This document shows, piece by piece, positions 3,951 through 41,705 of a stretch of 42,398 nucleotides of DNA; position 1 is the stretch's first letter; each line of letters starts with the position of its first letter. The notes below the pieces were generated by a model. The model worked only from the letters and a program-made list of their open reading frames with translations. It was not told the origin of the DNA and did no database searches. Where the stretch lies: the IMG/VR virus record IMGVR_UViG_3300050500_000090. The stretch is one strand, 5' to 3'. A program made the translations under genes and the position numbers. This DNA comes from a virus.

Positions 3951-3962
3951 GCGTTTGAACGG
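3951..3962 (+). repeat. GCGTTTGAACGG dispersed 12-mer, exact copy 1
   Basis: Read directly from the sequence. Intergenic, ending 8 nt before ATG 3971. Confidence 0.95.
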
Positions 3963-3970
3963 GGCATGAG

Positions 3971-4585
3971 ATGGCTACGCAGATCGAAATCGCCAACAAC
4001 GCGCTGACGCTCTGCGGAGCCGCCCGCATCATGGGACTGACGGACGCCCAGAAGCCAGCCCAGGCGATCAATGCTGTCTACGAGGTGACGCGGAAGAAGG
4101 CGCTCGCGTCGCAAAACTGGAAGTTCGCCCTGCGTCGTTTCAAGCCTGCCGTGACCACAGCGCCGCTGTTCGGCTGGACTTACGCCTATGTCATCCCGAC
4201 GACGATCCTCCGCCTTGTCGAGATCCGCGACCGCTTCGTAGGCTATGGCTCCCTTGGCCCCAGCGTCAGCGACGGCACGCCCCAGGAATTCGAGGTCGAA
4301 GAAGACAACCTGATCGTTACGAACTACGAACCGCCGCTGAATTGTCGCGGCGTCGCCGATATCACAGCCGTTGATAGGTTCGATCCGCTCTTCGTCGATT
4401 ACTTCACGCATGAACTTGCGCTGGCCGTCTGGGAAGACGTGTCTCGGAAGAACGCCACGAAGAAAGACATGATCGAGAGAGCGCGAGATCGCTCCTTAAA
4501 GATCGCTCGAAACAGGAACGGCATTGTAGAGCCGCCTGAAGAACTCCCTGACGATAACTGGCTGCTAGCTCGCATAGGTCCATAA
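3971..4585 (+). CDS. Tail tubular protein A / head-tail adaptor (T7 gp11-like)
   Basis: 204 aa. The N-terminal IEIANNALTLCGAARI...W.FA pattern and the position directly before the nozzle gene support the call. TAATG stop-start overlap with the next gene. Confidence 0.75.
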   Translation: MATQIEIANNALTLCGAARIMGLTDAQKPAQAINAVYEVTRKKALASQNWKFALRRFKPAVTTAPLFGWTYAYVIPTTILRLVEIRDRFVGYGSLGPSVSDGTPQEFEVEEDNLIVTNYEPPLNCRGVADITAVDRFDPLFVDYFTHELALAVWEDVSRKNATKKDMIERARDRSLKIARNRNGIVEPPEELPDDNWLLARIGP

Positions 4586-7500
4586 TGGGTGAAATCAGCC
4601 TCTGGCAAGCTTCGTTCAATGGTGGTGAACAGACGCCATTGCTCGAAGGCCGCGAAGACACGCAAAAATATCAGACAGGCTGTCGCCGTCTCCGGAACTT
4701 CCACGGCATCATTCAAGGCCCCGCTCGGAGACGAACAGGGACGCGTCGCGTTGCCAATACGAAGAGCAACGGCGAAGCGTGGCTTATCCCGTTTATCAAG
4801 TCGCGGCAGGACAAATACGTCATTGAGCTGGGCAACAATTACGCTCGGTTCTACAAAAATCGCGGCCAGCTCCTGAACACTTCGACAGGCGGAGGGCTTG
4901 ACGACAGCTTTACCAAAGCGCTGCTGCATATGGACGGCGCGGACGGCGCAGCTTTCTTCGGTGATGAAAGCGGCAAAGCCTGGACGCGTCAGGGAAATGC
5001 ACAGATCGACACAGCTCAGAGCAAGTTCGGCGGCGCTTCTGGTCTCTTCGACGGTACGGGAGACTGGCTGACGACGCCTGACCATGCCGATTTCAACTTA
5101 GGAACGCAGAACTTCACTGTCGATCTCTGGTTTAACTGCACGAAAGCAGGCGGGACAGACGCCGATCTCGGCGGGCAGACGGACGGCATTGGCACGCCCT
5201 GGGCTAACACGTCGTTCTTTATCGACCGTAGCTCAGGCAATATCATGCGTTTCTTCGTCTCTGACGGAACGAACCTGACGGCAATCCAGGGAACGACGCA
5301 GTTCACGAACCTGATTAACCCTGGCTGGCATCACTTCGCGGCAGTTCGGCAAGGCAACACGCTGCGTCTGTTTATCGACGGTATACAGGAAGCGTCAGGG
5401 AGCTTCACTGGGACTATTCCGAATTCAACCGCGTTGCCGACCATTGGCGTTCGTGCGTCAACTGGCGGTTCGCCCTGGATCGGGTGGATTGACGAATGGC
5501 GCATGTCTGTCGGCGTCGCGCGCTGGACGACGAACTTCGTCCCTCCGAGCGGTCCTTACGGCAATGCGCCTTATGAGATCGCCACGCCCTGGACGTATGC
5601 CGACCTAACGGACGCTGACGGCACGTTCAAGTTTCGTCTCGTGCAGAACCAAGATGTTATCTACATCTGTGGCGGAACCGGGATTAAGCAGCTCAACAGA
5701 ATAAGCGATCTGAATTGGACAATAACAGACTTCGACAGCGTCGGCGGACCCTTCGACGCTACAAACAGCAGCGCTACGACCGTTTATGCTTCCGCTGCTA
5801 CGGGCTCGGTAACGTTAACGGCGTCAACGTCTATTTTTACGAGTGGTCACGTGGGTTCGCTTATGCTTTTGCGACCACAAGACCTCTCTGCGGTCCCGCC
5901 CTGGGAAGTCCATCAACATGTGGCAACCGATGTGTTGCGGCAGAACGATGGAAAGACCTACAAATGCACGACGGCAGGCGTTACGGACGCGACAGGACAG
6001 CGGATCACGGGAACGAAGTCGCCAATTCACGAGGAAGGAACAGAGAAGGACGGTGACGGCGACGCGGCAGACCCGAAGGCGACAGACGGCTCCGTCGTCC
6101 CGACAGGGATCGACTGGCAGTTCCAAGATCCGGGCTACGGCGTGCTGAAGATCACGGCGGTAGCCAGCGGGACGTCGGCGACGGCGACCGTACAGCCGTG
6201 GCGCATAGGGGCGAACGCGCAGCTTCCTGCTGAAGTGGTCAGCTCTGGAAACCCGACAACCCGTTGGGCTTTCGGCCTGTTCTCTAACGCCAATGGCTGG
6301 CCCAAGGCCGTGACGTTCTTCCGGGAGCGCCTGGTTTTCGGCATGCCGCGCCAGCTCGCCTTCAGCGTTCCCCAGGGCTTCACGGAGTTCCTACAGGAGA
6401 CAGCCGGGCAAGTGCTCCCTGATAACGGCTTCGTCGCGGATATCAGTTCGGATCGAGATGAAGAGCTGCGCTGGCTGCTGCCGAACGGCGCTGTGCTGCA
6501 TGTCGGCACGACGGGCGGAGAGCTGGCTTGCCTGGAGCAGAACCCGAACAACGCCTTCGGCCCCTTGAACCGCAAGATCGACCCGCAGACGGGCTTTGGC
6601 TCGAATGGCGTCGCGCCCCTTCGCGTCGGCGATACGCCCCTCTTCGTCGAAGCGTCGGGCCTACGCGTGCGAAAGATCGCGGCAGGCGACAGCGGCAGCT
6701 TTCAGGCGCTGTCGCAGAACGACCTCGCCGAGCACATCACCAAATCGACCGTCATCCAGACGACCTACGCAGCCCTGCCGGACAGCTTCTATTGGGGCCT
6801 GCGCGCTGACGGTCGGCTCGCCTGCCTGACGTTCTCACCAGAGCAGGAAGTCTTTGGGTGGTCGCTGCACTATGTCGGCGGCTACCGTGACAGCTCTCGC
6901 CTACAGCCTGCGAAGGTTCGCTCTATCACCAGCATTCCGAGCGAAGACGGCACGATTGACGACGTCTGGGCGGTCGTAGAGCGTCGGATCAATGGGCAGA
7001 CGGTTCGCTGGGTGGAGTTCTTTACGGAGCAGACCACGAAGCCGGATCGCTGGGAGTTCGAAGGCGCTGGCGCTTACGAAAGACGTGTTCACGACTATCA
7101 ATCCACGCTGTTCTTTCTCGACGGCGGGACCAACTACGACGACCCGAAGCCGATCTCGAATATTGCCGTGGTCGCTGGCGATGTGACCGTTACGACTTCG
7201 GTTCCACACAACTTCGCAAACGGGGACGACGTTCGTCTTGACGCGATTGTTGGTCCCTGGGAGCTGAATGCGCGCGTCTTCGAAGTCGAGAACGTCACGA
7301 CGTTTACGTTCGATCTTGTCGATTATGACGGAAGCGATCTCTCGGCTTATGTCATGGGTGGCAACGCTCGCGAAATGGTTACGGTCATTTCGAACCTCAG
7401 CCCTTGGGAAGGCGAAACGCTGCAAGTCCTCACTGATGGCGCGGTTCATCCGAACAGAACGGTTTCGGGTGGACAGATCACGCTTCAGTATCAGGCGGCG

Positions 7501-7851: not shown

Positions 7852-8363
7852 TTATCGACTATCGGCCAGAGCACCTTTTAGCGATCCAATGGCAGCGGGA
7901 GCAGGAAGGCTACGGAACGTCCCGCTCTCACGCCGAAGCAGTAGGACATAGCTGGAGCGCCAAGACAGCCCTTCAAGACGGTGTCCCTGTCATGTGCGCT
8001 GGGATAATGGAAGTCTGGGAACAGCGCGCAATGGCCTGGGCTGCTGTCGATTGGCGAGCGAGCCGAGCGACTTTCCTGGAGGCTCATAAGGCCATGCTGC
8101 CGGAGCTTGACCGCGCTCCGTTTCGTCGTCTAGAGATGTATGTCAAGCCGGGCTTTTTTGCCGCGTGGCGCTGGGCTCAATTGCTTGGCTTCACTTACGA
8201 AAGCACGATGAAAGCCGGATCGCCTGACGGCAAGGATCTATTCGTCTTCGTGCGTTTGAACGGTCGTGCGGCATACGAAATGCTTACGGAGAAAAGACAT
8301 GCAGTTCGCAGCCGTGTTCATGGCAGGCGTGCAAGCGCTCGGATCTGTCGTCAGCGGAGCTGA
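7848..8363 (+). CDS. Hypothetical protein in the position of T7 gp13 / internal virion protein A
   Basis: TTG start overlapping the nozzle stop (TTGA). 171 aa. The function is assigned by synteny only, and the C-terminal 65 nt overlap the next gene. Confidence 0.45.
   Translation: MIIDYRPEHLLAIQWQREQEGYGTSRSHAEAVGHSWSAKTALQDGVPVMCAGIMEVWEQRAMAWAAVDWRASRATFLEAHKAMLPELDRAPFRRLEMYVKPGFFAAWRWAQLLGFTYESTMKAGSPDGKDLFVFVRLNGRAAYEMLTEKRHAVRSRVHGRRASARICRQRS
8252..8263 (+). repeat. GCGTTTGAACGG dispersed 12-mer, exact copy 2
   Basis: Read directly from the sequence. Inside CDS 7848..8363 (codes VRLNG), 36 nt before ATG 8299. Confidence 0.95.
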
Positions 8364-8783: not shown

Positions 8784-11372
8784 ATGGCTATTCAGGTTCC
8801 CGTCTATCGCCAGCAGACGGCGTTTGGTGGCGCTCCCGACGCGAGCGGCACAAATGAGCGCATGCGCCCTACAGGGATCGGCGAGGCTATTTCCGATCTC
8901 GGCGAAGCTGGTCTGCGCATGGCCGCGAATGCGGACCGCGTCAACCGGGAGAACGCCGCGTCGAATGCGATCTTCGCCGTCTCCGATACGAACCTCGCCA
9001 TGGAGGAAGCGTTTCAGAAGGCGAAGGAGCAGGCGCAGCCGGGCGCTCCGCAGTTCACGCCGAACCTGATGAAGAACTATGACGCCGAGATCGAGCGGCG
9101 CGCCACGGCTCTTCCGGACGAGTTGACGCGAAAAGCCTATCGGGAGAGAATGGCTGCGTCTCGTGACAATTTCGGGGCTCGCTCGCTGGCTTGGGAGAGC
9201 GCCGAGAACAAACGCAACAAGATCGACAACTTCTCGAAGACGGCCGATAACGATGCGAACCAGCTCTTTGCAGCGGACGCGGCCAGTCGCGGTATTGTCT
9301 ACCAGTCGCAGAAAGAACAGTTCGATCAAGCGATTGACGTGCTGGAGCTGGAGCCAGGAGACAAGGCGAAGCTCAAGGAAGAAGCGCAGAACAAGCGCAG
9401 CTATGCCGCTGTTCAGGGCGATCTTCGCGACCGTCCGGACCGCGTACAGGACTGGCTGACGAATGGCGGAGGCGGTTCCTACTTCGCCATGCTGCGTTCT
9501 GCGGAGAGCGGCGGCAGGAACATCGGCAGCGACAGTTCAAGCGCTTTCGGACCGTATCAGTTCACATCCGGAACGTGGTCGAATGTGATCAAGCGGCATC
9601 CGGATCTCGGCTTGACGGAGGCAGACCGCTTCAACCCGGCAAAGCAGGAGATCGCGATCCGCGCCTTCACGGCAGACAACGCTCTCGCATTGAAGAGCGC
9701 TGGCTTGCCACAGACGGATGTCAATCTCTACATGATGCATTTCCTTGGCGAAGCTGGCGGTCGTAGAATGATTGTCGGCTTGATGCATCACGCGGGAGAA
9801 GACGCGCGCAACTTCGCCGATCCTAAAGCCGTTGCGGCGAACCCTACGATCTTCAACGGGCGCAGCGTTGAGCAAGTCTTCAAGCTGTTCGGGGGCAAGT
9901 TCGGCGACAAAGAGACATGGAAGAACGTCTCGGATGCGCCAAACTACTACGCCGATATCCCCTTCGCAAAGCGCGATATGCTCTACGGGCAAGCCGAAAC
10001 GGAGATGAACAAGCGGCGCGCTCAAGGCGAGGCTGCATTCCGTCAGCGCGTGGATAATGCTGTCGCCGAATACAGCACGACCGGGAGTGCGTCGTCAGCG
10101 CCGACAGAGCCGGAATTCGTCGCGGCTATGGGAGCCCAGCGCGGCTCAGTCGCTTACGGAGAATTCCAGGCGAACGCAGTCGGGGCGGCGGCGGGCTATC
10201 GCGTGCAGCGCATGTCTCTGGCAGAAGGTGCACAGTATGTCGAGAGCCTGAAGCCGGCCGCTGGCGATCCGTTCTACGCGGAGAAGTCGCGCGGCTACGC
10301 CCAGGCGAAGGAGGTCGCGGACCGCGTCAGGACGTCGGCGCTGACGGACTTCGGCCAGCACGTCGCCACCTTCAACGAGGAAGCTCGCTCGGCTCTGGGA
10401 ACCGCTATGACCTCCAACGACGCGGCAGCGGCGAAGGCAGCAGCCCAGAGCTATGCGCGCATCATTGACACAGAAGCTGTTCGCCTGGGCGTCCCTGCTG
10501 CCGGACGCGGCTTCCTGCCGAAAACCTACAGCCAGCAGATCGCCGCGACCCTTGACCAGAAGTTGACGAAGGACGCCGACGCCGCCGTGGTCGTTCAAAC
10601 GCTCAATGAATTCCGGGATCGCTGGGGAGAGAACTGGCCGCGCATCTACAGCGAGATGAAGGAGACGCTGTCGCCGACGCTGCAAGTTGTCACATCTGGC
10701 GTCCAGCCGCGAGCGGCCATGACGCTGGTTTCTGTCGCGAACCAGAGCTTTGACGACCTCGCCAAGGTGCTGCCGAAGAGCACGAAGACGGATATCACGG
10801 AGAACTTGCAGGAAGCCTTCCAGCCTTTCGTCACGTCTACGATGTGGCAACAGTCAAGCCTTCCGACCGTCACGAACTTTTTCGAGCAAGCAAAGAAGCT
10901 TTCGGCTGTTTACGTAGCGCAGGGCGAAACGGCGGGAGACGCGGCGACGCGTGCTTACGAAGACGTTCTCGGCTTCAAATATCGCATGCTCTCTGCAAGC
11001 TCGGCGAATGTCCGCGTGCCGAAGCCGGTTGACTTTCCGGAGCTGGAGCATGTGTTGAAGTTTGAGCGGCTGAACATTATCGAGCGTCGTATTGCGGCGA
11101 ACCCGAACGATCCTGTTACGAAGTTTGATCCTGTTGCCGCTGATCGTCTCGTCAAACAGCAATATGCCGACGATAGCAAGTGGGTGACAATGCCAGACGA
11201 AAGCGGCGTCGCTCTGATGCGTGGGAAAGAGCTGCGTCCTGACAAAGACGGCAAGCCTATTGTTCTGTCGTGGCAAGAGCTGCGCGCTTCTCGTGACCGC
11301 ATGAAGACCCGCGCGGAAGAAGAGGCGCAGAGTGAACAGACGATGTTCGGCTTCTGGCATATGGGGGATTAA
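8784..11372 (+). CDS. Internal virion/ejection protein with lytic transglycosylase (SLT) domain
   Basis: 862 aa. SLT signature at about 9470..9790: AESGGRNIGSDSSSAFGPYQFTSGTWSNV (catalytic E-S, AxGxxQF, TW). Confidence 0.85.
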   Translation: MAIQVPVYRQQTAFGGAPDASGTNERMRPTGIGEAISDLGEAGLRMAANADRVNRENAASNAIFAVSDTNLAMEEAFQKAKEQAQPGAPQFTPNLMKNYDAEIERRATALPDELTRKAYRERMAASRDNFGARSLAWESAENKRNKIDNFSKTADNDANQLFAADAASRGIVYQSQKEQFDQAIDVLELEPGDKAKLKEEAQNKRSYAAVQGDLRDRPDRVQDWLTNGGGGSYFAMLRSAESGGRNIGSDSSSAFGPYQFTSGTWSNVIKRHPDLGLTEADRFNPAKQEIAIRAFTADNALALKSAGLPQTDVNLYMMHFLGEAGGRRMIVGLMHHAGEDARNFADPKAVAANPTIFNGRSVEQVFKLFGGKFGDKETWKNVSDAPNYYADIPFAKRDMLYGQAETEMNKRRAQGEAAFRQRVDNAVAEYSTTGSASSAPTEPEFVAAMGAQRGSVAYGEFQANAVGAAAGYRVQRMSLAEGAQYVESLKPAAGDPFYAEKSRGYAQAKEVADRVRTSALTDFGQHVATFNEEARSALGTAMTSNDAAAAKAAAQSYARIIDTEAVRLGVPAAGRGFLPKTYSQQIAATLDQKLTKDADAAVVVQTLNEFRDRWGENWPRIYSEMKETLSPTLQVVTSGVQPRAAMTLVSVANQSFDDLAKVLPKSTKTDITENLQEAFQPFVTSTMWQQSSLPTVTNFFEQAKKLSAVYVAQGETAGDAATRAYEDVLGFKYRMLSASSANVRVPKPVDFPELEHVLKFERLNIIERRIAANPNDPVTKFDPVAADRLVKQQYADDSKWVTMPDESGVALMRGKELRPDKDGKPIVLSWQELRASRDRMKTRAEEEAQSEQTMFGFWHMGD

Positions 11373-13862
11373 ATGGACGATCCTAATTACGTCCCTTTCG
11401 GCAATGCTCCTCTGTTTGTCAGAGACGAACCTATTGCCGACATGACGCCGTCGTTTTCCACCTATTTCGAGAGCGCCGCTGGAAACGTGCTGCGCGATAG
11501 CCCAACGTCGTCACTCTTCCGAGCAACGGAGCTGGCTGGCGCGAATGCGGAGCAAGGCGGCTTTGACGAATTCGGCGTCTATCACGGCGGCATGCAGGAG
11601 ACGCGGAGAACAGTGTCGTCTGAGGATGCCAAAGCTAAGGCGGAGGAAGCTGGCGTCACTGTCGATTTCGGCGGAGATCGCTACACGCCTGAAGCCGTGG
11701 ATATCATGATCGACCGCGCGAAGCGTCGCACTATTCGCGATGTTGTCGTCAACGCTTACGATCCGTCTTGGGGAACGCAGCTCGGCGTCTCTCTGGTGAC
11801 GTCCCTCGCCGATCCGCTCAACATTGGCGCGGCGTTTATCCCCTTCGTCGGCGAGGCGCGCTATGCGGCGATCCTGGAAGGAGCAGCCAGCTTCGCGGGA
11901 CGAACCGGCATCCGCGCGGGCCTGGGCGCTGCTGAAGGTCTGGCGGGCGCTGCCTTGGTGGAGCCGCTTATCGCGGGCGCAGCGCTTCAGGAAGGCCGCG
12001 ACTATACCCTTGCCGACAGCCTCTACAATCTCGCTTTCGGCACGGCTTTCGGCTCCGGCCTGCACGCGGCTGGCGGCGCGATCAAGGAGAAGCTGTTTCA
12101 GCGCCGCGTCAATTCCGAGCCCGTTCAAACGCCTGCTGACATTGTCGAGCGTCTGCCTGTCGAAGTGAACGAGGCTGCTCTGCGCGGCGCGATCTCCGAC
12201 TTGATCCATGGCCGCGCCGTACAGTCTAGCGAGCTGATTGACAGCTTGATCGGCCAAAATCCACAGCTCAAAGAGGCGCTATCCGTTACATCCACGCTTC
12301 GCCGAGACGGCCCGGATCTGGACGACATTCCCGGACGCATTGAATACTGGGAGAAGAACCTCACGGCGCTGAAGGAGAAGACCGCGAAGGGCGTGGACTT
12401 CCCGACATGGCTCCGGCAGCAGGGCGGCGTCAAGGATACGGACGGAGCGCTTGCGGCTGCGCTCGGAGATGTTTCGCATCTGAAGAGTTCCGTCTACATC
12501 TCGCAGCGGGGAGCAGCCAGGGCGAAGCGGGGCCTGTCGCTGGACGAGCTGTTGACCAAGGCGAAGCAGGCGGGATACGCCGAAACGATGGAGGAGCTTG
12601 TCGCCGCCTTCCGCCCAGGCGCGAAAGCCGTCACCAGGGACGCACAGAAGGCCGCTAAGGCGCGGGAAGATCTGGCGGCTTGGGCTGCGACGCTGGAGAC
12701 GGAGAGCGGCGTAGGGAAGAACAGGCCGCTTTCTGTGAAGGCGCGTGCCATCGCTGGCCGGGAGCAGCATATCCTCGCCTCGGAGCGTGCCCGCGTCGCC
12801 AATGCTATCGACGCGCTTATGGGGCGCAAGAAGGATTATCAGGCGATTGCGGAAGGCCCTATCGATAAGGAGGTTCCGGAGTATGTGCCAGAGCCCGCGC
12901 CAAAGGCAGCAGCGGAGACGGAAGGGGCTGCGAAGTCTGCTGAGACCCCGGCTAAGGAAGCGCAGACGCCAGCCGCTCCCGTATATTCCGAGCGGCAAGT
13001 TCTCAAAGCTATCGAAACATCCATTAAAGTGAACGAAGGAAACCCGGTTCCGACGGATCGCGTAATGAAGGACTATCTTCCCGGCATGTCGCGGAGTAAG
13101 TTCGATGCTGCCGTTAAGAAGATCGCAAAGAACCGTCCGGATCTCGTCAAGAAGAAGGGAAAGGACGGAACCGAAATCGTTATGTTCGGAAAGCTCTCGA
13201 AGGAAGCGCAAGAGGCTAGGGAGCGTGCGGACGTTGATGCTCGCGTGAATTCGCTTCGCCGTGTTATGGAGCAGAAATATCCTTCTCTCGGCAACGGGCC
13301 TTTCTTCTTGAACGAGCTGTTCGGACCGCGTATGCGTACCGTGTTCAACATGGGGGAAGCGCAGATCGTTCGCTATGTGAACCGCATGGCGGCAGAAGGT
13401 AAGGTGGAGCTGACAGCCCAGGCGCAGACGTCAACGAACCCTCCCCGCAAGATCGGCCGCATCAACGCTGACCACCTCTACAGCGACGACCGGAGCGCAG
13501 ATGTCCGCATTACCTTTAAAGAGAAAGTCCCGCCGCAACCGAAGAGAAAAGTTGCGGAAGCTGCTCAAGGAACCGTTGCCGTCTCCGAGCCTGTCACACT
13601 GCCTCCAGCGATTACGGCTAAAGTTGAAACACCTCCCGCGCCGCTTAACGCGCTGAAGACGGCGGAGATCGTCACTTACGAAGCGCAGTTCAAGGCTGTT
13701 GAAGCAGCGACACAGAAACAGTTCGATGCAATGGCCAGTATGCTGCCTCCGGAAACGGCGCTGCGTCTGAAAGCCCAGCTCGAAAAGATCAACCTGGAGC
13801 AGGGCGAACTTGAGAACGTCTACAACACGGCTGTGCAATGTCTGCTAAATCCGGAGAGCTAA
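11373..13862 (+). CDS. Large internal virion/ejection protein (gp15/16-like position), 829 aa
   Basis: The start abuts the previous stop (TAA then ATG). Assigned by size and synteny. Contains an Ala/Pro/Glu/Lys-rich linker. No catalytic motif recognised. Confidence 0.55.
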   Translation: MDDPNYVPFGNAPLFVRDEPIADMTPSFSTYFESAAGNVLRDSPTSSLFRATELAGANAEQGGFDEFGVYHGGMQETRRTVSSEDAKAKAEEAGVTVDFGGDRYTPEAVDIMIDRAKRRTIRDVVVNAYDPSWGTQLGVSLVTSLADPLNIGAAFIPFVGEARYAAILEGAASFAGRTGIRAGLGAAEGLAGAALVEPLIAGAALQEGRDYTLADSLYNLAFGTAFGSGLHAAGGAIKEKLFQRRVNSEPVQTPADIVERLPVEVNEAALRGAISDLIHGRAVQSSELIDSLIGQNPQLKEALSVTSTLRRDGPDLDDIPGRIEYWEKNLTALKEKTAKGVDFPTWLRQQGGVKDTDGALAAALGDVSHLKSSVYISQRGAARAKRGLSLDELLTKAKQAGYAETMEELVAAFRPGAKAVTRDAQKAAKAREDLAAWAATLETESGVGKNRPLSVKARAIAGREQHILASERARVANAIDALMGRKKDYQAIAEGPIDKEVPEYVPEPAPKAAAETEGAAKSAETPAKEAQTPAAPVYSERQVLKAIETSIKVNEGNPVPTDRVMKDYLPGMSRSKFDAAVKKIAKNRPDLVKKKGKDGTEIVMFGKLSKEAQEARERADVDARVNSLRRVMEQKYPSLGNGPFFLNELFGPRMRTVFNMGEAQIVRYVNRMAAEGKVELTAQAQTSTNPPRKIGRINADHLYSDDRSADVRITFKEKVPPQPKRKVAEAAQGTVAVSEPVTLPPAITAKVETPPAPLNALKTAEIVTYEAQFKAVEAATQKQFDAMASMLPPETALRLKAQLEKINLEQGELENVYNTAVQCLLNPES
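12121..12132 (-). repeat. GCGTTTGAACGG dispersed 12-mer, exact copy 4 (reads CCGTTCAAACGC on + strand)
   Basis: Read directly from the sequence. Antisense within CDS 11373..13862 (the + frame codes EPVQTP). Confidence 0.95.
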
Positions 13863-14011: not shown

Positions 14012-16581
14012 ACGCAGACCGCTGCATTCGTACAATCATTGACGAGACACAAACTCGGCTGACGAAGCAAGAGGTCGGCGCGATTGTCGAGATGCTGATT
14101 GCCTACGACATTCACCCGCGCAATCAGCAAGTCTTCGGACCATTCTCCCCGGAGCAAGGTCGCATCCAAGCCGCGCTGGAGAACCCACAGACGGCGACGC
14201 TACAACAGGCTCGGGATGTGTTGATTGCGCGGGCTCGGTTGGTCGCAGCCCAGCAGCGGGCTAACGTCGTCATGGACGCAGCCAAACGCGGCCAGCGCTT
14301 CATTACGTACCAGAACGCAGGGGACGAAAGCCTCGGCGTGCAGTCGAAGCTTGTCGGCACGAACACGCCGTTTCTCGGATCTCGCGACAGCGCGGCAGCA
14401 GCAATCCAAGGGAACACCTACAACCTTCTCGGCACGTTTGACGCAGAGCTGAAGCAGGCTGGTCTTGACAGGATCTTTGCTTCTGGAGCGATGGAGCGCG
14501 ACTGGACGCGGGAACTCTTCGAGCTGAACAGGACAGCTCCAGGACCGAGACGACCCGTGACGCGCAATCCTCAGGCGCTCCAGATCGCGCGTATTGTGCA
14601 GAACATGCAGCGGCGCGCCGTGGAAATGCTGAATAACGAAGGCGCTTTCGTCGGCTCTTATGACGGCTATATCGCGCGGACGACGCATGACAAGGATCTC
14701 GTTCGGCGCATGGGCGAAGACCGTTGGATAGGATACGCTCAGCAATGGTTCGATATCCCGACGATCTATCCGAACAGGACGCAAGCGCATATCGAAACGC
14801 AGCTTCGCGCCCAGTATAAGCGGATCGTCAGCGGCCTGCATGACAGCTACGACATGGACGAGCTGGACTTGATACCGGATAGCGTCGGCGGGCAAAACCT
14901 CGCCAAGAAGGTCTCCCAAAGCCGCGTTATCCACTTCAAGGATGCCGATAGCTGGCTGGCGTATATGGGCGTCGCGTCGCAAATGACGCCGTCACAGATC
15001 ATCATGCGTTCGGCACAATCGGCGGCGCGTGACGCTGGCTTAATGCGGATCTGGGGGACGAACCCAAAGCGAGCAATGCAGACGGACATTCAGGTTCTTC
15101 AGCAGGAAGCTCGCGGGCGCAGCGACTACGACATGATCGAGCGGCTGACGACCGAAACGCCGCGCTACAATCTGTGGATGGACTACATGACGGGCGAAGC
15201 GAACCGTCCGCATAACGAAACCTGGGCGCGCGTCACGTCGAATATCCTCAGCGTTCAGCGCATGGCGAAGCTCGGTTTCCTGCCGTTCGCCCAGCTTGTC
15301 GATCTGGCCAGCATCAGCGGCGAGCTGCGCTACCAGGGCGTCGGCTTTATCGACCGCATGACGTCGGGGCTGACGGCGTACTTTCGCGGCGGGATGAACA
15401 GCGAGAAGCGTCAGGTCGCGGATCTGCTGGGAGCCTATCTCGACGGCGAGCTGGCTCAATACAACGCGGATCTGGAGCTGCACGACCCGCGCCAGCTCGG
15501 AGGCTTCACGGGGCGTTTGAACAGGCTTCAGGATATCTTCTTCCGCTACTCCGGAGCCCAGGCGCTGACGAACCGGGCGCGCGGCGGGCTGCTCCATATG
15601 ATGTCTCGGCATATGGGCAGCTTCCACGGGCAGTTCTGGGGAGCACTGGACACGGCGGAGCAGCGTATCATGAGCGCCTTCAACATTGGCGAGCATGAGT
15701 GGAACGCGTTGATGCGTGCGCAATGGACGACGGGCGTCGAAGGTGGAACGTTTCTGACGCCGAGAGATGCCTATAACATTCCTGACGCGGCAATCTCGGC
15801 TTACAATGCCGCAACGGGCGTCGTCTTCGAGTACGACACCTTTCGCGAAGAGATGGCGAACCGTCTCTATTCGTACTATGCGGACCGCATGGATTACGGC
15901 GTCCTCAATCCCGGCATTGCGGAGAAGGCGATCCTCTACCAGGGGGCTGCTCCCGGCTCCGCTCTCGGCGTAACGCTTCGGCTAATCACGCAATTCAAGT
16001 CATTCATGGTCGCGAACTTCCGCCGAACCTGGGGACGCGAGATCTACGGCGGGCAAGGCAGGCTCGGCGCTGTCGCGGGCATTGCTGAGTACGCGATCAC
16101 GGGCGCTGTGCTGGGCGTGCTGGCGAACGGCATGAACCAGCTTTTCAAGGGGCAAGATCCTTTCAGCCAGTGGGACAACGATCCGGGAAGGGCGATCCTC
16201 GCAGGGCTGACGCGCGCAGGAACCTCCAGCATGATTGGAGACTTCATGTTCGGCGAGCTGGGACGGCATGGGCAGAGCGTCGCGGCCTACCTGCTGGGAC
16301 CGAACGTCGGCTCTGTCGAGAGCTTCATGCGGGCGTATCAAGCGGCGCGCAGCGGAGAGAACCCGTCTGGCGAGCTGCTGTCCTTCGTCCGGGGCATGAC
16401 ACCATTCGCCAATATGTTCTATACCAAGATGGCGCTGGATTTCCTGGTATGGAACGGGTTGACGGAGATGGCGAGCCCTGGCTACCTCAGGCGAACCGAG
16501 CGCCGTCTGAAGCAGACGCAGGGCATAGAATTCTTGAAGTATCCAGTTGACCTTTCGCCGAACAATATGAGGGCTTTCTAA
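14008..16581 (+). CDS. Large internal virion/ejection protein, 857 aa
   Basis: Assigned by size and synteny between the ejection-protein genes and the tail fibre. TAATG overlap with the fibre gene. Confidence 0.55.
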   Translation: MNADRCIRTIIDETQTRLTKQEVGAIVEMLIAYDIHPRNQQVFGPFSPEQGRIQAALENPQTATLQQARDVLIARARLVAAQQRANVVMDAAKRGQRFITYQNAGDESLGVQSKLVGTNTPFLGSRDSAAAAIQGNTYNLLGTFDAELKQAGLDRIFASGAMERDWTRELFELNRTAPGPRRPVTRNPQALQIARIVQNMQRRAVEMLNNEGAFVGSYDGYIARTTHDKDLVRRMGEDRWIGYAQQWFDIPTIYPNRTQAHIETQLRAQYKRIVSGLHDSYDMDELDLIPDSVGGQNLAKKVSQSRVIHFKDADSWLAYMGVASQMTPSQIIMRSAQSAARDAGLMRIWGTNPKRAMQTDIQVLQQEARGRSDYDMIERLTTETPRYNLWMDYMTGEANRPHNETWARVTSNILSVQRMAKLGFLPFAQLVDLASISGELRYQGVGFIDRMTSGLTAYFRGGMNSEKRQVADLLGAYLDGELAQYNADLELHDPRQLGGFTGRLNRLQDIFFRYSGAQALTNRARGGLLHMMSRHMGSFHGQFWGALDTAEQRIMSAFNIGEHEWNALMRAQWTTGVEGGTFLTPRDAYNIPDAAISAYNAATGVVFEYDTFREEMANRLYSYYADRMDYGVLNPGIAEKAILYQGAAPGSALGVTLRLITQFKSFMVANFRRTWGREIYGGQGRLGAVAGIAEYAITGAVLGVLANGMNQLFKGQDPFSQWDNDPGRAILAGLTRAGTSSMIGDFMFGELGRHGQSVAAYLLGPNVGSVESFMRAYQAARSGENPSGELLSFVRGMTPFANMFYTKMALDFLVWNGLTEMASPGYLRRTERRLKQTQGIEFLKYPVDLSPNNMRAF

Positions 16582-26292: not shown

Positions 26293-26638
26293 GGTCTTTG
26301 CGCTCCTTCTTCCAGTGTTTGAACGCTCTCCAAACTTCGCCGAAGATAATGCGATAGGTGGAGAGAACTTCCCGCAAGCTCAGCCTGACGGGCTCGCCGC
26401 TGCCGTAGACGATAGCAGGCTTCGGCAGCGGCTTCGCGGTCCATACCGTCGCGTTCTTATCCTGGTCATAGTACCAGTTCAGAACCTCGTCTAGCTCGCT
26501 GTAGTGAACGAGATCGACATGAGAGATAGCGATCTGTCCGCCAGCCATGCGAACGGTATGGAACATGCAGCGGCGGAGCATGCGGTTCTGTTGCTCCAGG
26601 ATTTCGATCCGCTCTTCCGGTTTGACGCCGTAGTCCAT
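26276..26638 (-). CDS. Hypothetical protein, 120 aa
   Basis: AAGGAAACGCAG precedes the ATG. The composition looks protein-like. No motif recognised. Confidence 0.65.
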   Translation of the reverse strand: MDYGVKPEERIEILEQQNRMLRRCMFHTVRMAGGQIAISHVDLVHYSELDEVLNWYYDQDKNATVWTAKPLPKPAIVYGSGEPVRLSLREVLSTYRIIFGEVWRAFKHWKKERKDRERAH

Positions 26639-30487: not shown

Positions 30488-32887
30488 TCAGTCTAGCAGC
30501 TCGTCTGCTTCTTCCTGTAGGTCGATCTTGTAGCGGAATTGGCCGTTCTGGTAAACGATTTCCTTTACGAGATGACGACCTTTCTTTCTGAAGTGCCCCC
30601 TTCCTTTGCCGTGGTCGTGTTTCGATGTTTCGCCTATCGTCCAGCCAGCATGACGCAGCATTTTTTCCAGATCTTGCAGCGCGTAGCGTGCTGTCGCCTG
30701 GAGCTTCTTATCCCTGCCGTTTTCGTCGCCGAAGCCTAACGCGCTCCAGAGCTGCGAACGATGGATGAAGCCTTCTTCGAACGCATTGATTTTATCGAAC
30801 ATCTCTTCGATTGTCACGTCTCGGTCAATGCGCGTCTGTTGGATCGCCTCCATATCCTTGACAGCCTCCGGGGAGAGACGGAGGTCTAACGTTAGATCCT
30901 CCCAGGCCACGGCTTCCGCCCAGAGCTGGTCTCTTTCTGCCTTCAACGCATCCCAGTCAAGTTCTTTTGTCACGGGGATGATAGGAAAGCGGCGGTTCCC
31001 GGTAAGATCTCGTAAGACGCGATGCTCGTTTGTGGTGCCGACGAAGACGGCAAGCCGATGATACTCAGAGACTTCGGTCGCGTGGTTCTTAATCAGTTCG
31101 TCCTTCTTCTGAGTGACGAAGGCTTTGATCTTTTCAATCTCGGTGCTTTTCTTCCCCGACAGCTCTCCGAACTCAACAAACAGCTTCCCTTGGATCTGCG
31201 TATAGAGACGTTTTTCTTCGAGATCAAGCCGGACTGAATTCAGGAACCATTCCGGATTAGGGCACAGCAGCTCGAACAGAGACGACTTGCCGAGCCCTTG
31301 CAGTCCCTGAAGGATCGGCATCATATCGAACTTGAAGCCGGGTTGAAACACGCGGCGAACCACGGCGTAGCACAGCAGTTGACCGAGTTCGCGGACGGCA
31401 GGGCGGTTCGGCGCTCCCATATGCCGCTGAAACATGGTTTCCAGGCGATAGACGCCGTCCCACTTCCCGGACAGGCTGTTGAAGTAGTCCTGCGCGGGGT
31501 TGTAGGGGGCCTGCCGGGCTATACCTTCGACAAACTCGCGCAGGACGTTGCGAGATGGTCTCCAGCGCTGGTCATGTGCGATGCTCCAGAGGTCGATAAG
31601 GCTCTCGTTCGTCATGCGCTCTCCGTCCAGACGAACGCATTTGGCGAAATCATCCCAGCGCGCCGTTATGCCAAGGTCGCGAAGATGATCCTCGCAGTTC
31701 TGCTTTGAGTTCGTCTCCAGCTCCTGCGAGAGCCCTTCGGCCGTGCGCTTGCGGTCGCTGTAGTGGATAGCCAAAGGGCGATAGTCGATATAGGGCTCCA
31801 GCTCGCTCCTAAGCCGTTCAAACGCTGGTGAACGGAGGCGATCCTTCTCCACGTCCGTGACTTTGACCTGTCCCGCCATCTGCTTCAGCGTAATCCAGTG
31901 CGTCGGACGCGGATGCTCGGCGTCCAGGCCGTTCCAGAGCGCGACGCAGTCGAAGCCGCCCTTGTAGTTGTTGCCGAGCCCGGACCAAGTCTCGAAGATG
32001 TTCAGGCCGATATCGGAGCCTTCAAACATGTAATGAAGGGCTCCGCCGACGCGCCTCCACTCGTTGCGGCCCATGCTGGGATTGAGCTTGGCCATGACGT
32101 CCAAGACGTCGTCAAGGCGGATCTGGCTGCGCGTCGTGCCGTGGAGCTGGGCTTTCTGTTGCTCCTCTCTGTTGCGGAGATCGGCTGTCGGGGAGCGCTT
32201 GGCCTTTTCTTTCTGCATGTCGTAGACGCGCGCCGTTCCGCTGTCCCCGGTTTGCATCTTCTGGAAGGCGTTGGAGGCGTTCTCGTCCGTGGCGGCCAGC
32301 GCATCCGGAAAGGCGAAGTGCTTAGCGACAGCCGCGAGCGTCAGCCTGGGAAGGTACGATCGATTGTGGACGATCCGGGAGACAGGGCGCTCGGCGTATT
32401 TGGTGTTCATGAAGCCGGGAGCGCGGAGGATCTGGGCGGGGCCCGTCGCGCATTCGTGGTCGTGTCCGTGCCATTCGACCATGCGGCGGTGAATAAGCTC
32501 CCACATATCGACGGGGATCGCCTCACACAGCCAGAAGCGTTGAAAGCGGCCAGGGCTCGTCTCGATGGTGAAATGGGCGTCCTGGCCGCAAATCTGGGGC
32601 TCTGCGCGGGGATCTGTGGTCTTCCCCGGCTCGGCGTCCTGGTAGAGGCAGCGCAGCTCCCGGTAGGCGTCGATTTTGGCGTAACGCGAGCCGGGATCGT
32701 TCGCCGTGAAGTAGATGGAATAGCCGGCCGCGTTCAGGGCTTGCAGCTCAGGGAGAAATTGCCACAGCTCGCCATAGAAGGACTTGGCGTCGTCGGCGGC
32801 GTGGTCAACCGCGCGGAAGAGGTGAGACCCGGCGAAGGCGTCAAAGAAGGCTTCGATTGCATTGCAATCGACGGAGGGCTGTGCCAT
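30488..32887 (-). CDS. DNA primase: RepB'-type catalytic domain plus PriCT-like domain plus VirE/D5-like P-loop NTPase
   Basis: GYSIYFTAN and TIETSPGRFQRFWL (RepB'-type hallmark). W..VGGALHYMF...FETWS (PriCT-like). Walker A GLQGLGKSS with LAVFVGTTNE (VirE-like). ATG 32887 is preferred over the track's TTG at 32938, which lies inside a hairpin. Confidence 0.9.
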   Translation of the reverse strand: MAQPSVDCNAIEAFFDAFAGSHLFRAVDHAADDAKSFYGELWQFLPELQALNAAGYSIYFTANDPGSRYAKIDAYRELRCLYQDAEPGKTTDPRAEPQICGQDAHFTIETSPGRFQRFWLCEAIPVDMWELIHRRMVEWHGHDHECATGPAQILRAPGFMNTKYAERPVSRIVHNRSYLPRLTLAAVAKHFAFPDALAATDENASNAFQKMQTGDSGTARVYDMQKEKAKRSPTADLRNREEQQKAQLHGTTRSQIRLDDVLDVMAKLNPSMGRNEWRRVGGALHYMFEGSDIGLNIFETWSGLGNNYKGGFDCVALWNGLDAEHPRPTHWITLKQMAGQVKVTDVEKDRLRSPAFERLRSELEPYIDYRPLAIHYSDRKRTAEGLSQELETNSKQNCEDHLRDLGITARWDDFAKCVRLDGERMTNESLIDLWSIAHDQRWRPSRNVLREFVEGIARQAPYNPAQDYFNSLSGKWDGVYRLETMFQRHMGAPNRPAVRELGQLLCYAVVRRVFQPGFKFDMMPILQGLQGLGKSSLFELLCPNPEWFLNSVRLDLEEKRLYTQIQGKLFVEFGELSGKKSTEIEKIKAFVTQKKDELIKNHATEVSEYHRLAVFVGTTNEHRVLRDLTGNRRFPIIPVTKELDWDALKAERDQLWAEAVAWEDLTLDLRLSPEAVKDMEAIQQTRIDRDVTIEEMFDKINAFEEGFIHRSQLWSALGFGDENGRDKKLQATARYALQDLEKMLRHAGWTIGETSKHDHGKGRGHFRKKGRHLVKEIVYQNGQFRYKIDLQEEADELLD
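31814..31825 (-). repeat. GCGTTTGAACGG dispersed 12-mer, exact copy 5 (reads CCGTTCAAACGC on + strand)
   Basis: Read directly from the sequence. Sense orientation inside the primase CDS (codes PAFERL). Confidence 0.95.
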
Positions 32888-34099: not shown

Positions 34100-34128
34100 T
34101 CTCTAGGCGCGTTCAAACGATGTGTCAA
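34100..34128 (-). promoter_or_regulatory. Candidate sigma70-type promoter for the SprT/primase operon
   Basis: On the - strand: TTGACA (34128..34123), 17-nt spacer, TAGAGA (34105..34100). The spacer contains a near copy of the dispersed motif (tCGTTTGAACGc). Flanked by the GTTGACA/TGTCAAC inverted repeat. Confidence 0.35.
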
Positions 34129-34934: not shown

Positions 34935-34989
34935 TTATCTGATTTCAACTCTAGGTTGATTGCTTTACACGACATACAACTTATTGGAA

Positions 34990-35230: not shown

Positions 35231-35255
35231 TTTCGCTCTCAACCTAGAAGGGAAC

Positions 35256-35311: not shown

Positions 35312-35378
35312 TAGCCATGGCGCGGTTGCGGCGGCGTTCGGGCCATGGCATAGCTTGAGCGTATCGAAGGGGTAAGAC

Positions 35379-36336: not shown

Positions 36337-36530
36337 CTGAGAGCGTATCCTGCTGGGCTATCACGGACGTTGATAGCCTTGTCCACGTTCGCGGCGGAGC
36401 CTGGGAAGTCTCGCATGCGGCGAGAGACGGTAGCAAGCAATGCTGCACTGTGATATTCAGCGGTCCTGACGCTCGGAAACGTGCGGAATGGTACGCAGAC
36501 TATCTCAGAGGCGAGGAATTGCTTGAATGA
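36333..36530 (+). CDS. Hypothetical protein, 65 aa
   Basis: Translationally coupled on both sides (ATGA). No motif recognised. Confidence 0.55.
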   Translation: MTESVSCWAITDVDSLVHVRGGAWEVSHAARDGSKQCCTVIFSGPDARKRAEWYADYLRGEELLE

Positions 36531-36808
36531 CCGTCTATGTGGATACCATGCGGCATCCGTTTGGGCGCATGATCATGTGTCACATGTTCGCGAATACAGA
36601 CGCCGAGCTGCATAAGATGGCTGCGCGTATCGGCGTCGCCCGTATCTGGCATCAACGGCCGCCCTGCGACGCTCCTGGAATGAATGCGTCATGGTCTCAC
36701 TACGATATCAGCGTGTCAAAGCGCAAATTAGCTATTGCTTACGGCGCTGAAATCATCGAATACAGACAGCTTGCAGACTTTCTAAGAGGTTTGGAGCTGT
36801 TGAAATGA
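36527..36808 (+). CDS. DUF4031-like protein, 93 aa
   Basis: VYVDTMRHPFG..MCHMFANTDAELHKMAARIGVARIW......HYDIS..KRKLAIAYGAEII matches the family pattern as I recall it. Confidence 0.65.
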   Translation: MTVYVDTMRHPFGRMIMCHMFANTDAELHKMAARIGVARIWHQRPPCDAPGMNASWSHYDISVSKRKLAIAYGAEIIEYRQLADFLRGLELLK

Positions 36809-39184: not shown

Positions 39185-39193
39185 TTTCATAAG

Positions 39194-39205
39194 GCGTTTG
39201 AACGG
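39194..39205 (+). repeat. GCGTTTGAACGG dispersed 12-mer, exact copy 3
   Basis: Read directly from the sequence. Intergenic, ending 2 nt before the portal ATG 39208. Confidence 0.95.
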
Positions 39206-39207
39206 CC

Positions 39208-40842: not shown

Positions 40843-40845
40843 ACA

Positions 40846-41403
40846 ATGGCAACGTTTCATAGAAAGAAGCAGACTGTTGAGGCCATTCAGTATGAGGGTG
40901 GTCTCGTCAGTGCGGCGAAGGTTATCGAGCTGTTCGGGCTCGAAGAAGACTGTTACAAGGCGAAGGAGAAAGCGCTTTACGTCGAAGGGACACAGGTCTT
41001 TCAAGGCTCCTGGGTGGTCCGCGAGCCATTCTTCGGCCGTGACATCTTCCGCTTTCTCTCCAACGAGGAGTTCAACGCGATCTTCGAGCCGTCAACGCCT
41101 GTAGGGCTTCCGGAGCGCTCTATCCCGCGCATGAGCTATCCAGCTGCGAAGCCGTTCGATCCTGTCGTAGTGGAGCCTAGTATCCCGGACAGGTCTGCCC
41201 TTCAGCACCGTATCGAAGCCTCGGAAGCGCTGAAGTATGAAGGCGCTGCGATGCCGCTTGGCGATGGTTCTTACGCTATCGCGCATCCGGACAGGCCCGC
41301 TGAGATACTTAGTCGCGACGGAAAGCGGGAGCTGATCGACACGGGCATAGGGATCTTTCCCGCGTCACAGTCCGTTAAAATCACCGATCCTTCGAGGCTG
41401 TAA
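40846..41403 (+). CDS. Hypothetical protein, 185 aa
   Basis: The N-terminal KKQTVEAIQYEGG...GSWVVREPF...FLSNEEFNAIFEP resembles a common small phage beta-barrel domain of unknown function. Confidence 0.65.
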   Translation: MATFHRKKQTVEAIQYEGGLVSAAKVIELFGLEEDCYKAKEKALYVEGTQVFQGSWVVREPFFGRDIFRFLSNEEFNAIFEPSTPVGLPERSIPRMSYPAAKPFDPVVVEPSIPDRSALQHRIEASEALKYEGAAMPLGDGSYAIAHPDRPAEILSRDGKRELIDTGIGIFPASQSVKITDPSRL

Positions 41404-41705
41404 TGTTTCGCAAGTGGCTGGCGATTGAGCGTAAGTCAACGCTGTTCAAACGGGTCTTCGAGAATATCGACGGTCGCGCCGTTCTCGCAGAGCTGTCGGC
41501 TTTCGCGCATATGGAGACGACGACTGCGAAAGCTTCGACGATCACGGGAATGATAGACCCGAATGCGATGCTCATTGCAGAAGGTCGCCGTCAAGTCGTG
41601 TTGCACATTGCGCGCGTTTGCGGCATATCGTACGAAGAGATAGCGAACATGCGCTATCTGGAGGAAGGATACTCGAATGAACCTGTTCAACAGGATTTAT
41701 CGTAA
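41403..41705 (+). CDS. Small conserved head-module protein, 100 aa (Bbp19-like pattern, tentative)
   Basis: FENIDGRAVLAELSAF...AEGRRQVVLHI resembles small proteins found between portal and scaffold genes in some podoviruses. TAATG overlap upstream. Confidence 0.55.
   Translation: MFRKWLAIERKSTLFKRVFENIDGRAVLAELSAFAHMETTTAKASTITGMIDPNAMLIAEGRRQVVLHIARVCGISYEEIANMRYLEEGYSNEPVQQDLS

Follow-up and report, generated by a model that had tools for sequence, protein, structure and literature searches.

The window analysed here, the whole 42,398-nucleotide stretch of IMG/VR virus record IMGVR_UViG_3300050500_000090, carries a short dispersed motif, the 12-mer GCGTTTGAACGG with the 8-base core GTTTGAAC/GTTCAAAC, together with a gene for a SprT-like protein of 293 amino acids (aa) whose own promoter contains one of the copies (Table 1). 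The ends of the window duplicate each other exactly over 127 bp (1-127 = 42272-42398), which indicates a circular assembly with a true length of 42,271 bp, and no motif copy is double-counted despite this duplication. The sequence is a metagenome assembly (ENA contig k141_819947, 42,412 bp), and pieces of it are also present in a JGI metagenome that, to judge by its contig names, may come from switchgrass rhizosphere. The structural module is T7-like (portal, capsid, tail tubular A and B, internal virion proteins), and a divergently transcribed replication module encodes an AEP primase-helicase, a DEAD helicase, a DUF2800-type exonuclease, a gp2.5-like single-stranded DNA-binding protein and a family A DNA polymerase. 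The window proteins that were scanned included no phage RNA polymerase, no integrase and no CI-like repressor. The closest cultured phages share about 35% portal identity; megablast against GenBank phages returned no near relative, a search of bacterial genomes with the capsid protein returned no prophage relative, and the window contains no tRNAs and hence no hint of the host.

Table 1. Positions of the motif copies, of the SprT-like gene with its promoter, and of the gene for the small helix-turn-helix (HTH) protein in the window.
Feature	Position	Strand	Context
Exact copy	3951..3962	+	30-bp gap 3941-3970; end of core 10 nt upstream of the tail tubular A start codon (ATG 3971)
Exact copy	8252..8263	+	Intergenic 7852-8298; core 37 nt before the gp14-like gene (8299)
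1-mismatch copy	10591..10602	-	In the gene of an 862-aa internal virion protein; frame GTT-CAA-ACG, the sole orientation that the frame permits
Exact copy	12121..12132	-	In the gene of an 829-aa virion protein; frame GTT-CAA-ACG
1-mismatch copy	15513..15524	+	In the gene of an 857-aa virion protein; CGT-TTG-AAC = R-L-N
1-mismatch copy	22785..22796	+	In the DNA polymerase gene (minus strand); coding strand CCG-TTC-AAA-CGG (F-K)
HTH_17 protein gene, 86 aa	24152..24412	-	PF12728, E 3e-9
2-mismatch copy (flanks)	26315..26326	+	Near the 3' end of a 120-aa gene, 26276-26638 (minus strand)
Exact copy	31814..31825	-	In the primase-helicase gene; GCG-TTT-GAA-CGG (F-E)
SprT/SPRTN-like zinc metalloprotease gene (putative), 293 aa	33182..34063	-	HELGH 143-147; basic arm KRQKGRNLK 207-215; C-terminal zinc ribbon CPCC...CPSPKC; acidic tail GDEEE
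Sigma-70-like promoter of the SprT-like gene	34100..34128	-	TTGACA (34128-34123), spacer catc-GTTTGAAC-gcgcc, TAGAGA (34105-34100)
2-mismatch copy (flanks)	34109..34120	-	In the 17-bp spacer of the SprT-like gene's promoter
Exact copy	39194..39205	+	23-bp gap 39185-39207; 12-mer ends 2 nt before portal ATG 39208
2-mismatch copy (flanks)	41442..41453	-	41 nt inside the Bbp19-like gene; L-F-K-R conserved

Enrichment of the Motif in the Window

The five exact copies of the 12-mer compare with none in 100 dinucleotide shuffles, and the six near copies differ from it by one or two mismatches each, none of them within the core. The core itself is present 11 times (six plus, five minus; 1 per 3.8 kb), against 1.02 +/- 1.05 in dinucleotide shuffles, of which the largest value was 4. 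Extended to ten bases as CGTTCAAACG, it is the top 10-mer of the window, with 8 copies against 0.2 expected under an order-3 Markov model (p = 5e-11); the most enriched 10-mer is also given as CGTTTGAACG. When synonymous codons were shuffled within genes, 1.09 +/- 1.03 cores were expected (maximum 5 in 1000 trials) and 7 were observed, and under the same null the 10-mer was seen four times inside genes against 0.17. On the circle the 11 copies are spaced more evenly than random (coefficient of variation, CV, 0.43; P = 0.004), the smallest gap being 1,530 bp. Two related words, GTTTAAAC and GTTCGAAC, have no copy in the window.

A sequence-only reading of this DNA had listed the copies, and a re-scan reproduced every coordinate and strand, the 11 cores, and the 15-mer common to two of the copies, at 22786(+) and 31810(-). 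Its argument that the repeat is not explicable by protein homology and acts at the nucleic-acid level has held: the excess survives the codon-aware null, and sites in relatives switch from A to G by synonymous changes and one Lys-to-Glu replacement. The three copies that it had placed in short spacers at gene starts are joined by a fourth intergenic copy, at 8254, ahead of the gp14-like gene. The seven in-gene copies comprise two in the sense and five in the antisense direction.

Dialects in Related Phages and Selection on the DNA

Relatives were fetched via their portal, DNA polymerase and exonuclease proteins, and the motif was found in them at homologous positions, as GTTTGAAC (the G form) or as GTTTAAAC (the A form) according to lineage. 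The G form is present in the close relatives L009 (90% portal identity) and L014/L017 (about 80% DNA polymerase or exonuclease identity). The more distant L010/L013, L011 and L015 (77%, 56%, and 45% identity) have 0-1 copies of GTTTGAAC and 7-11 of GTTTAAAC each, the latter being a perfect palindrome and the top k-mer of these genomes (p = 1e-11 to 1e-17). The switch is concerted: the G clade has 32 GTTTGAAC, no GTTTAAAC and no GTTCGAAC in 90 kb, and the A-form relatives have 40 GTTTAAAC and two GTTTGAAC in 103 kb. Over 78 kb of the G lineage, 23 copies of GTTTGAAC were counted against 2.75 expected, and no one-mismatch neighbour of the motif was enriched in either the G-form or the A-form group.

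Homologous sites are kept in the local dialect before the portal ATG, before the tail tubular A and gp14-like genes, in the early promoter, 41 nt into the Bbp19-like gene, and in the primase gene. The site at 3951 corresponds to L009 13106 (G form), L010 17470 and L011 16777 (A form), and that at 8252 to L009 17401 (G form) and L010 21246 (A form); the pre-portal site is retained in L009, L010, L011, and L012, and in L010 and L011 its TAA serves as the stop codon of the upstream gene. Within genes, the switch in the Bbp19-like gene changed TTT (A form) to TTC (window), both Phe, and in the Leu-Asn frame the Leu codon is TTG in the in-gene copies and TTA at A-form sites. The primase site went from AAA to GAA, and since the A-form relatives have F-K (TTT-AAA) at the same place, the dialect switch there cost a Lys-to-Glu replacement. 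The virion-protein genes of relatives also contain CGT-TTA-AAC (again R-L-N), at an offset other than that of the 15513 site of the window, so that homology of this site is not established.

The orientation of in-gene copies is set by codon constraints (in frame 0, only GTT-CAA-AC avoids a stop), and the promoter copy of L001 is inverted relative to those of L009 and the window. Because in-gene orientation follows the frame and the promoter copy can be inverted, orientation appears to be functionally neutral and the target to be duplex DNA. In addition, 22 of 56 sites are intergenic, although intergenic sequence makes up only 7.9% of the total (p = 8e-11). These patterns indicate that the motif is selected at the DNA level, and GCGTTTGAACGG is a lineage-specific dialect of a cis-element with the core GTTTAAAC that is scattered in many unrelated tailed phages.

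Several more specific identities were considered and rejected. The extended G-lineage consensus TTCA-N4-GCGTTTGAACGG-c-y-T fails as a general full promoter, as the 433 GTTTAAAC sites taken from other phages have no signal in their flanks beyond Y-GTTTAAAC-R. A boxA-like antitermination site and an ECF or sigma-54 promoter do not agree with the free orientation, the antisense copies and the copy in a non-transcribed promoter spacer; the same observations count against a -1 frameshift site (UUUAAAC), whose slippery heptamer the G form destroys.

The SprT-Like Protein

The 293-aa early protein is, as judged from its motifs and its predicted structure, a SprT/SPRTN-like, putatively DNA-dependent zinc metalloprotease. 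The HELGH motif and a third histidine, H156, are invariant in 39 homologues. An AlphaFold2 model of the protein (mean predicted local distance difference test score, pLDDT, 90.5) has as its best PDB match the human SPRTN protease-DNA complex (6mdx_A; E 6e-3, probability 0.93) and as its best viral structural match the "SprT" of Bordetella phage FP1 (E 2e-14), with CapP as a second, weak fold match. At the sequence level the protein matches PHROG 6361 (E 7e-35) and reaches 14.1 bits with PF10263, below the gathering score of 25.6, although some homologues have a precomputed PF10263 match. The family is large (2,091 representative clusters at 50% identity and E up to 1e-10). Its members in cultured phages of Arthrobacter, Microbacterium, Streptomyces, Bordetella, Pseudomonas, and E. 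coli, which number in the hundreds, bear no annotation beyond "SprT-like protease" or "transcription elongation protein", and the homologue of Bordetella phage CN1 is annotated as an antirestriction protein.

Co-occurrence of the Motif and the SprT-Like Gene

Among loci anchored on the exonuclease, the distant L061, L063, and L074/L075 (G+C 43-47%) have many copies of GTTTAAAC, as many as 16 within 19 kb, and the only window protein common to these four is the 293-aa SprT-like protein. It is missing from about 28 motif-poor loci anchored in the same way and from L012, which has a single site. We then fetched 80 IMG/VR loci (G+C 32-71%) with an alignment of the SprT-like family. The top 8-mer was GTTTAAAC or CGTTTAAA in more than 50 of them, GTGTAAAC in about 10 high-GC loci, and neither in about 12. 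When all open reading frames (ORFs) of 102 loci were clustered, the SprT-like family was present in 55 of 57 motif-rich against 18 of 45 motif-poor loci (p = 1e-10) and was the sole family in nearly all motif-rich loci; the runner-up shared family (117 aa) turned out to be an antisense ORF inside the SprT-like gene. A scan for the motif only, as two CGTTTAAACG within 10-40 nt, gave 44 short loci, 12 of which carry the SprT-like gene, in four cases with the pair directly upstream.

The association extends to cultured phages, strongly in three of the four examined and only weakly in the E. coli phage. Methylophilales phage Venkman has 34 GTTTAAAC against 2.2 expected, many of them forming the junction GTT-TAA-AC-ATG between small early genes. 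Acinetobacter phage Alexa has eight CGTTTAAACG against 0.11 expected, and the right arm of Arthrobacter phage Lizalica has 12 GTGTAAAC against 0.3; E. coli phage ep3 has four GTTTAAAC, which is not among its enriched words. With one genome per species for 185,579 bacterial and archaeal species, TTCANNNNGCGTTTGAACGG (the extended G-form site only; the host is not identified) gave scattered single matches in unrelated phyla and no enriched taxon, and a host-wide word is unsupported because only such matches were found. By these distributions, the motif is a phage-intrinsic rather than a host word.

Other arrangements of repeats were seen in these contigs. L327 (6510-6796; IMGVR_UViG_3300012352_000396) has at the contig end a perfect tandem array of a 29-bp unit (x9.9), each unit with CGTTTAAACG; the other end of the same contig (L314) also has a pair, and the array could be iteron-like or an assembly effect. 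In high-GC GTGTAAAC phages (L169 9250-9345 and similar sites in Arthrobacter phage Lizalica; L157) the word lies within a longer unit, cTTAGACT-GTTTACAC-AAGGCAAGGAaCAAC, which precedes several genes including the SprT-like one and whose TAGACT resembles an actinobacterial -10. Further contigs (L034, L064/L073, L058, L063, L158, L152) have strongly enriched words of their own (CGGAAGCGGA 24, GCATCACGGC 19, CGGCGGAGTC 9, GCCAACGCCA 21, AACCGCTG 19, CCGTAGCC 18), some of which may be tandem or coding repeats.

The Motif in the Promoter of the SprT-Like Gene

The layout of the SprT-like gene's promoter in the window, TTGACA-N4-motif-N5-TAnnnn, is also found in L009, L011, L015, L334, and L337. The SprT-like gene of other phage types has the word on different core elements of its promoter: in ep3 it lies just past an extended -10 (TGTATAAT-N8-motif), in Alexa it follows as TATTAT-N9-motif, and in Lizalica it comes directly after TTAGACT; L301 and L318 carry two copies, the first on the -35 and the second near +1, and in L308 a motif pair flanks a -10-like TAATAT. 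Such operator-like geometry, as predicted from these promoter sequences, is classically seen at genes under autoregulation. A sigma-70 consensus scan of the window found promoters and terminators at chance level and none linked to the motif.

Covariation of the Basic Arm with the Dialect

The dialect of a phage covaries with a basic arm that precedes the zinc ribbon. The arm reads KRQKGRNLK in the window and in the homologues P0158-P0163 and P0165 (G form), and KKQxTRMLK in P0166-P0171 (A form) and in almost the whole family. P0163 and P0165 have protease domains that are otherwise A-form-like, so that a forecast of the dialect could rest on the arm alone. Such a forecast was made for four unseen contigs, which were then fetched, and it was borne out: the contigs of P0165 (L334, KGRN) and P0163 (L337, KGRN) have seven and two GTTTGAAC and no GTTTAAAC, and those of P0166 (L335, KTRM) and P0168 (L336, KTRM) have three and two GTTTAAAC with one and no GTTTGAAC, respectively.

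L061, with the arm KNRN, prefers GTGT half-sites (GTGTACAC 10, GTGTAAAC 11, GTTTAAAC 3) in proportions that fit either of two half-sites being chosen freely; the related L063 and L074 (xARM) have 29 GTTTAAAC, 12 GTGTAAAC and no GTGTACAC. On this pattern of arms and words, L061 is a second, independent arm/dialect event. The motif is missing where the protein lacks the ribbon part (L129, L164) or has xCRL, with Cys for Thr (L095, L120, L139). Alignment columns of the protein, when ranked by how well they distinguish GTTTAAAC from GTGTAAAC loci, for the most part reflected phylogeny.

Other Features of the Window

Between the SprT-like and primase genes, at 32937-32983 in the minus-strand RNA, there is a 16-bp stem-loop (-33.8 kcal/mol, z -6.0) without a U-tract, whose arms, GGCCGTTCAGATGC, resemble the motif, with 10 of 12 bases the same; an attenuator or an RNA-stability element is a possible identity. 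The leftward and rightward gene blocks are separated by an AT-rich divergent region of about 500 bp (34880-35378) with several GTGAC(C)/GGTCACA repeats in both orientations, two exact copies of TAGGGGTATA 30 bp apart and two of GGGTAAGAC. It looks like an origin or main control region and holds no copy of GTTTGAAC. Other words of the window that exceed the order-3 Markov expectation are GCCCAGGC (16 against 2.9), TCCGGA (39 against 12.8; TCCGGAA 28 against 7.2), GAATTC (20 against 5.1), and CCTCCGCC (12 against 2.0).

Among the neighbouring genes, a 94-aa protein just upstream of the capsid gene (1185-1469), conserved in L009, L010, and L011, has a precomputed Pfam match to Acb2_Tad1_hairpin, an anti-CBASS/anti-Thoeris sponge family. 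A generic class I S-adenosylmethionine (SAM) methyltransferase, conserved in relatives, is encoded near the DNA polymerase gene (20037-20651), with a 241-aa gene between them, and a DUF4031 protein in the packaging block (36527-36808). A 337-aa early protein (29443-30456) has no family match beyond a faint MukB/JetC-like one, and a PADLOC scan of the early proteins gave nothing meaningful. In L015, an ART-PolyVal domain (21031-21935) is part of a 1124-aa virion protein.

Interpretation and Alternative Explanations

We favour the reading that the motif copies are dispersed docking or operator sites and that the SprT-like protein is their reader, to which we would give a probability of roughly 0.55; the broader claim that the reader is some DNA-binding protein encoded by the phage stands on firmer ground and is rather probable. 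The SprT-like protein would read the motif as double-stranded DNA in either orientation, and the copy in the spacer of its promoter would let it restrain its own production. The ten other copies, distributed around the genome at fairly regular distances (three in very short gaps ahead of the portal, tail-tube and gp14-like genes, seven in coding sequence), would dock the protein along the phage DNA. A docked protein could be a local transcription roadblock or regulator, e.g., before late genes, or a DNA-activated protease that acts on proteins bound to the phage DNA in the manner of ArdC (PMC7213743). The enrichment, the DNA-level selection, the concerted dialect switch, the gene co-occurrence, the promoter overlap and the basic-arm covariation are the observations; physical binding, autoregulation and a role of the docked protein are what we infer.

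A number of points weigh against this reading. The evidence is all correlative, and the G-form phages may be one clade in which GRN is an inherited marker and not a cause. The arm is not the sole determinant, because the high-GC GTGTAAAC phages mostly keep TTRM, and a simple symmetric dimer would not predict that two lineages use hybrid sites exclusively (the G clade GTTTGAAC only). None of the three dialects is seen in 18 loci that bear the gene. Of 69 motif-rich loci, no more than 16-20 have a copy in the 100 nt upstream of the SprT-like gene, when about 7 would be expected; autoregulation is therefore not universal, and the rule that such a copy is always present proved only partly true. 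SPRTN, Wss1, and ArdC bind DNA (single-stranded DNA or junctions) with no known sequence preference, and we know of no dispersed cognate word for any of them. Finally, the 86-aa HTH_17 protein also differs between dialects: the start of its recognition helix and its wing have Val and Tyr in the G form (window, L014/L017, L016) and Glu and His or Gly in the A form (L013, L018, L015).

The last point bears on the alternative that the HTH_17 protein (excisionase/MerR-like) is the reader, the sites being operators of a small regulator with only an indirect link to the SprT-like gene. It has a bona fide DNA-binding fold, and the sequence-only reading had named it as a candidate when it proposed a recognition site for a DNA-binding protein. 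The proposal of such a site is broadly supported, but this candidate is not the best one: its profile has no homologue in any motif-rich locus outside the clade; Venkman, Lizalica and the IMG/VR loci keep the motif without it; and its two residue differences track one phylogenetic split only. No family but the SprT-like one is common to motif-rich loci, and we consider the HTH_17 protein an improbable reader, though the least improbable of the alternatives and a possible candidate inside this clade.

It is also possible, at rather long odds, that the motif acts in RNA, as a signal of polycistronic mRNA before start codons in processing, translational coupling or the binding of a translational repressor. 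Copies do lie 1-50 nt ahead of start codons, the sense strand shows GUUUGAAC at six of the seven independent intergenic copies of the G lineage, and this sequence is self-complementary via G.U pairs; in Venkman, L010, and L011 the motif even provides the TAA stop codon (e.g., GTT-TAA-AC-ATG). However, the promoter-spacer copy precedes the transcription start and is inverted in L001, five of seven in-gene copies are antisense, one of them conserved across four lineages, and GUGUAAAC is not self-complementary. The motif alone cannot form a hairpin, and there was no match to an Rfam model at the gathering score.

Equally poor odds attach to the sites being single-strand nicks or protein-DNA adducts of the T5/phiKMV type, or modified DNA, with the SprT-like protease clearing a covalently bound protein. 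The even spacing can be counted in favour of nicks or adducts, SPRTN-type proteases, which the fold resembles, remove DNA-protein crosslinks, and the asymmetric site of the G and high-GC lineages would suit a nickase. However, T5 and phiKMV nicks are known to lie on one strand, unlike the motif copies (6+/5-), and nicking of both strands would cut the genome, since the common form of the site is a perfect palindrome. The sequence-only reading had suggested a nick consensus of the phiKMV kind, but that consensus, CGACNNNNNCCTACTCCGG, is absent from the window: at three mismatches it has four matches against 4.4 expected, none at the motif. The suggestion of a DNA-modification target is not supported either, as no DNA methyltransferase family is encoded, only the generic SAM methyltransferase (Methyltransf_25/11/23), and no nickase, HUH or topoisomerase family was found among the window proteins either. 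The core-promoter position also fits binding better than cutting.

A neutral origin, in which the word is a gene-boundary "linker" left by modular recombination or cassette shuffling and has no reader, appears very unlikely. The word does lie at gene junctions, to an extreme degree in the early region of Venkman, and a preprint on Cluster AZ phages mentions repeats and mobility near the SprT-like gene (10.1101/2025.05.26.655371). However, a word of 8-10 bp is too short for homologous exchange, in-gene copies are maintained at a cost (Lys to Glu), the even spacing is unexpected from gene boundaries, and the concerted, exclusive dialect switch (32 vs. 0 vs. 0) needs a reader. Least credible of all is a word dictated by the host (Chi-like element, uptake sequence, host regulator or restriction site) with dialects that reflect different hosts: its density, both orientations and one-base dialects do resemble Chi or uptake sequences, but the scan of 185,579 species with the extended G-form site found no enriched taxon and only single matches, phages of Methylophilales, Acinetobacter, and Arthrobacter (as GTGTAAAC) are all enriched in this word, which thus occurs in phages of both Proteobacteria and Actinobacteria, as are contigs of 32-71% G+C, a range that no single host factor fits, and it tracks the phage SprT-like gene and not the host, so that the Chi-like or host-factor element of the sequence-only reading is not upheld.

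Comparison with Known Systems

By analogy, the motif would work most like the stoperators of Cluster A mycobacteriophages and the start-associated repeats of actinobacteriophages. Stoperators are asymmetric sites of 12-13 bp, dispersed mostly in short intergenic gaps in one orientation relative to transcription; they are known from one phage cluster, and their reader is the HTH immunity repressor of a temperate phage (L5 gp71). The motif resembles them in its many dispersed copies, one of which overlaps an early promoter (here in the 34128-34100 spacer), in having a candidate phage-encoded reader, and in a site sequence that appears to co-evolve with the reader between lineages. It differs from them in its free orientation, both within genes and in the inverted promoter copy of L001, in the lack of an integrase or immunity repressor among the proteins scanned here, where the candidate reader is a metalloprotease, and in a word that spans phages of several bacterial phyla.

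The intergenic repeats of actinobacteriophages include the SAS/ESAS of Cluster K, an 18-bp motif, TAGaCTCTaGGTgTaAgC, in Microbacterium Cluster EC, and inverted repeats in Cluster EG (PMC7302621). Like the motif, they are short and lie 14-30 bp ahead of start codons in small gaps, and the Cluster EC motif contains GGTGTAAGC beside TAGACT and so resembles the TTAGACT-GTTTACAC unit of Lizalica. They are described per cluster with no reader assigned, whereas the motif here is also found in genes, across very different phage types, and is tied to one protein family.

On the protein side, the plasmid-encoded ArdC joins a DNA-binding domain to a SPRTN/Wss1-like protease and counters type I restriction (PMC7213743). 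The 293-aa protein shares with SPRTN, Wss1, and ArdC a HExxH zincin core and a zinc-binding DNA module, and its best structure match is SPRTN with DNA (6mdx); unlike them, the phage family has a basic arm and a C-terminal ribbon of its own and falls below the Pfam SprT-like threshold. The regulon of IrrE/DdrO with its RDRM motif combines a metalloprotease with a palindrome (PMC6868357); there, as in ImmA/ImmR and CapP/CapH, the palindromic operator that precedes a set of genes, among them the operon of a zinc metalloprotease, is genetically linked to that protease. However, in those regulons a separate XRE/HTH repressor binds the palindrome and is cleaved by a COG2856 protease; here the protease belongs to another family and no partner repressor family co-occurs. 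Chi and uptake sequences are likewise over-represented words of 8-12 bp with one-base dialects, and T5 and phiKMV nicks have fixed dispersed positions, but the motif is neither host-wide nor strand-biased, is without the nick consensus, and follows a phage gene across hosts.

The Cluster AZ preprint describes a homologue as a conserved DNA-binding SprT-like protease, with nearby repeats given as "data not shown" (10.1101/2025.05.26.655371). We found no literature that links the SprT-like family to GTTTAAAC, and searches by the motif sequence returned only primers and cloning sites.

Significance

A bolder proposal, which we regard as speculative and rather unlikely to hold in full, is that GTTTAAAC and its dialects are the address label of a widespread, undescribed phage system. 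A Spartan-like DNA-activated protease would read a word of 8-10 bp via its basic arm and zinc ribbon, throttle its own promoter, sit at regular intervals on the genome, and cut DNA-bound proteins such as restriction or defence motors, silencers and stalled polymerases. The hybrid words GTTTGAAC and GTGTAAAC would then be co-evolved changes of reader and word, and maybe an escape from host enzymes that cut palindromes.

If the binding is true, the protein would be the first sequence-specific member of the SPRTN/Wss1/ArdC class and a new kind of sequence-addressed protease, and it would reveal a novel route by which a virus directs a protease onto the viral genome. The one-base switch of the word and the three-residue change of the protein amount to a natural specificity-swap experiment, and the word is usable as a metagenome marker for these phages. 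The reading also offers a testable function for a large family of SprT-like phage proteins and a possible explanation for at least some of the start-associated repeats of actinobacteriophages.

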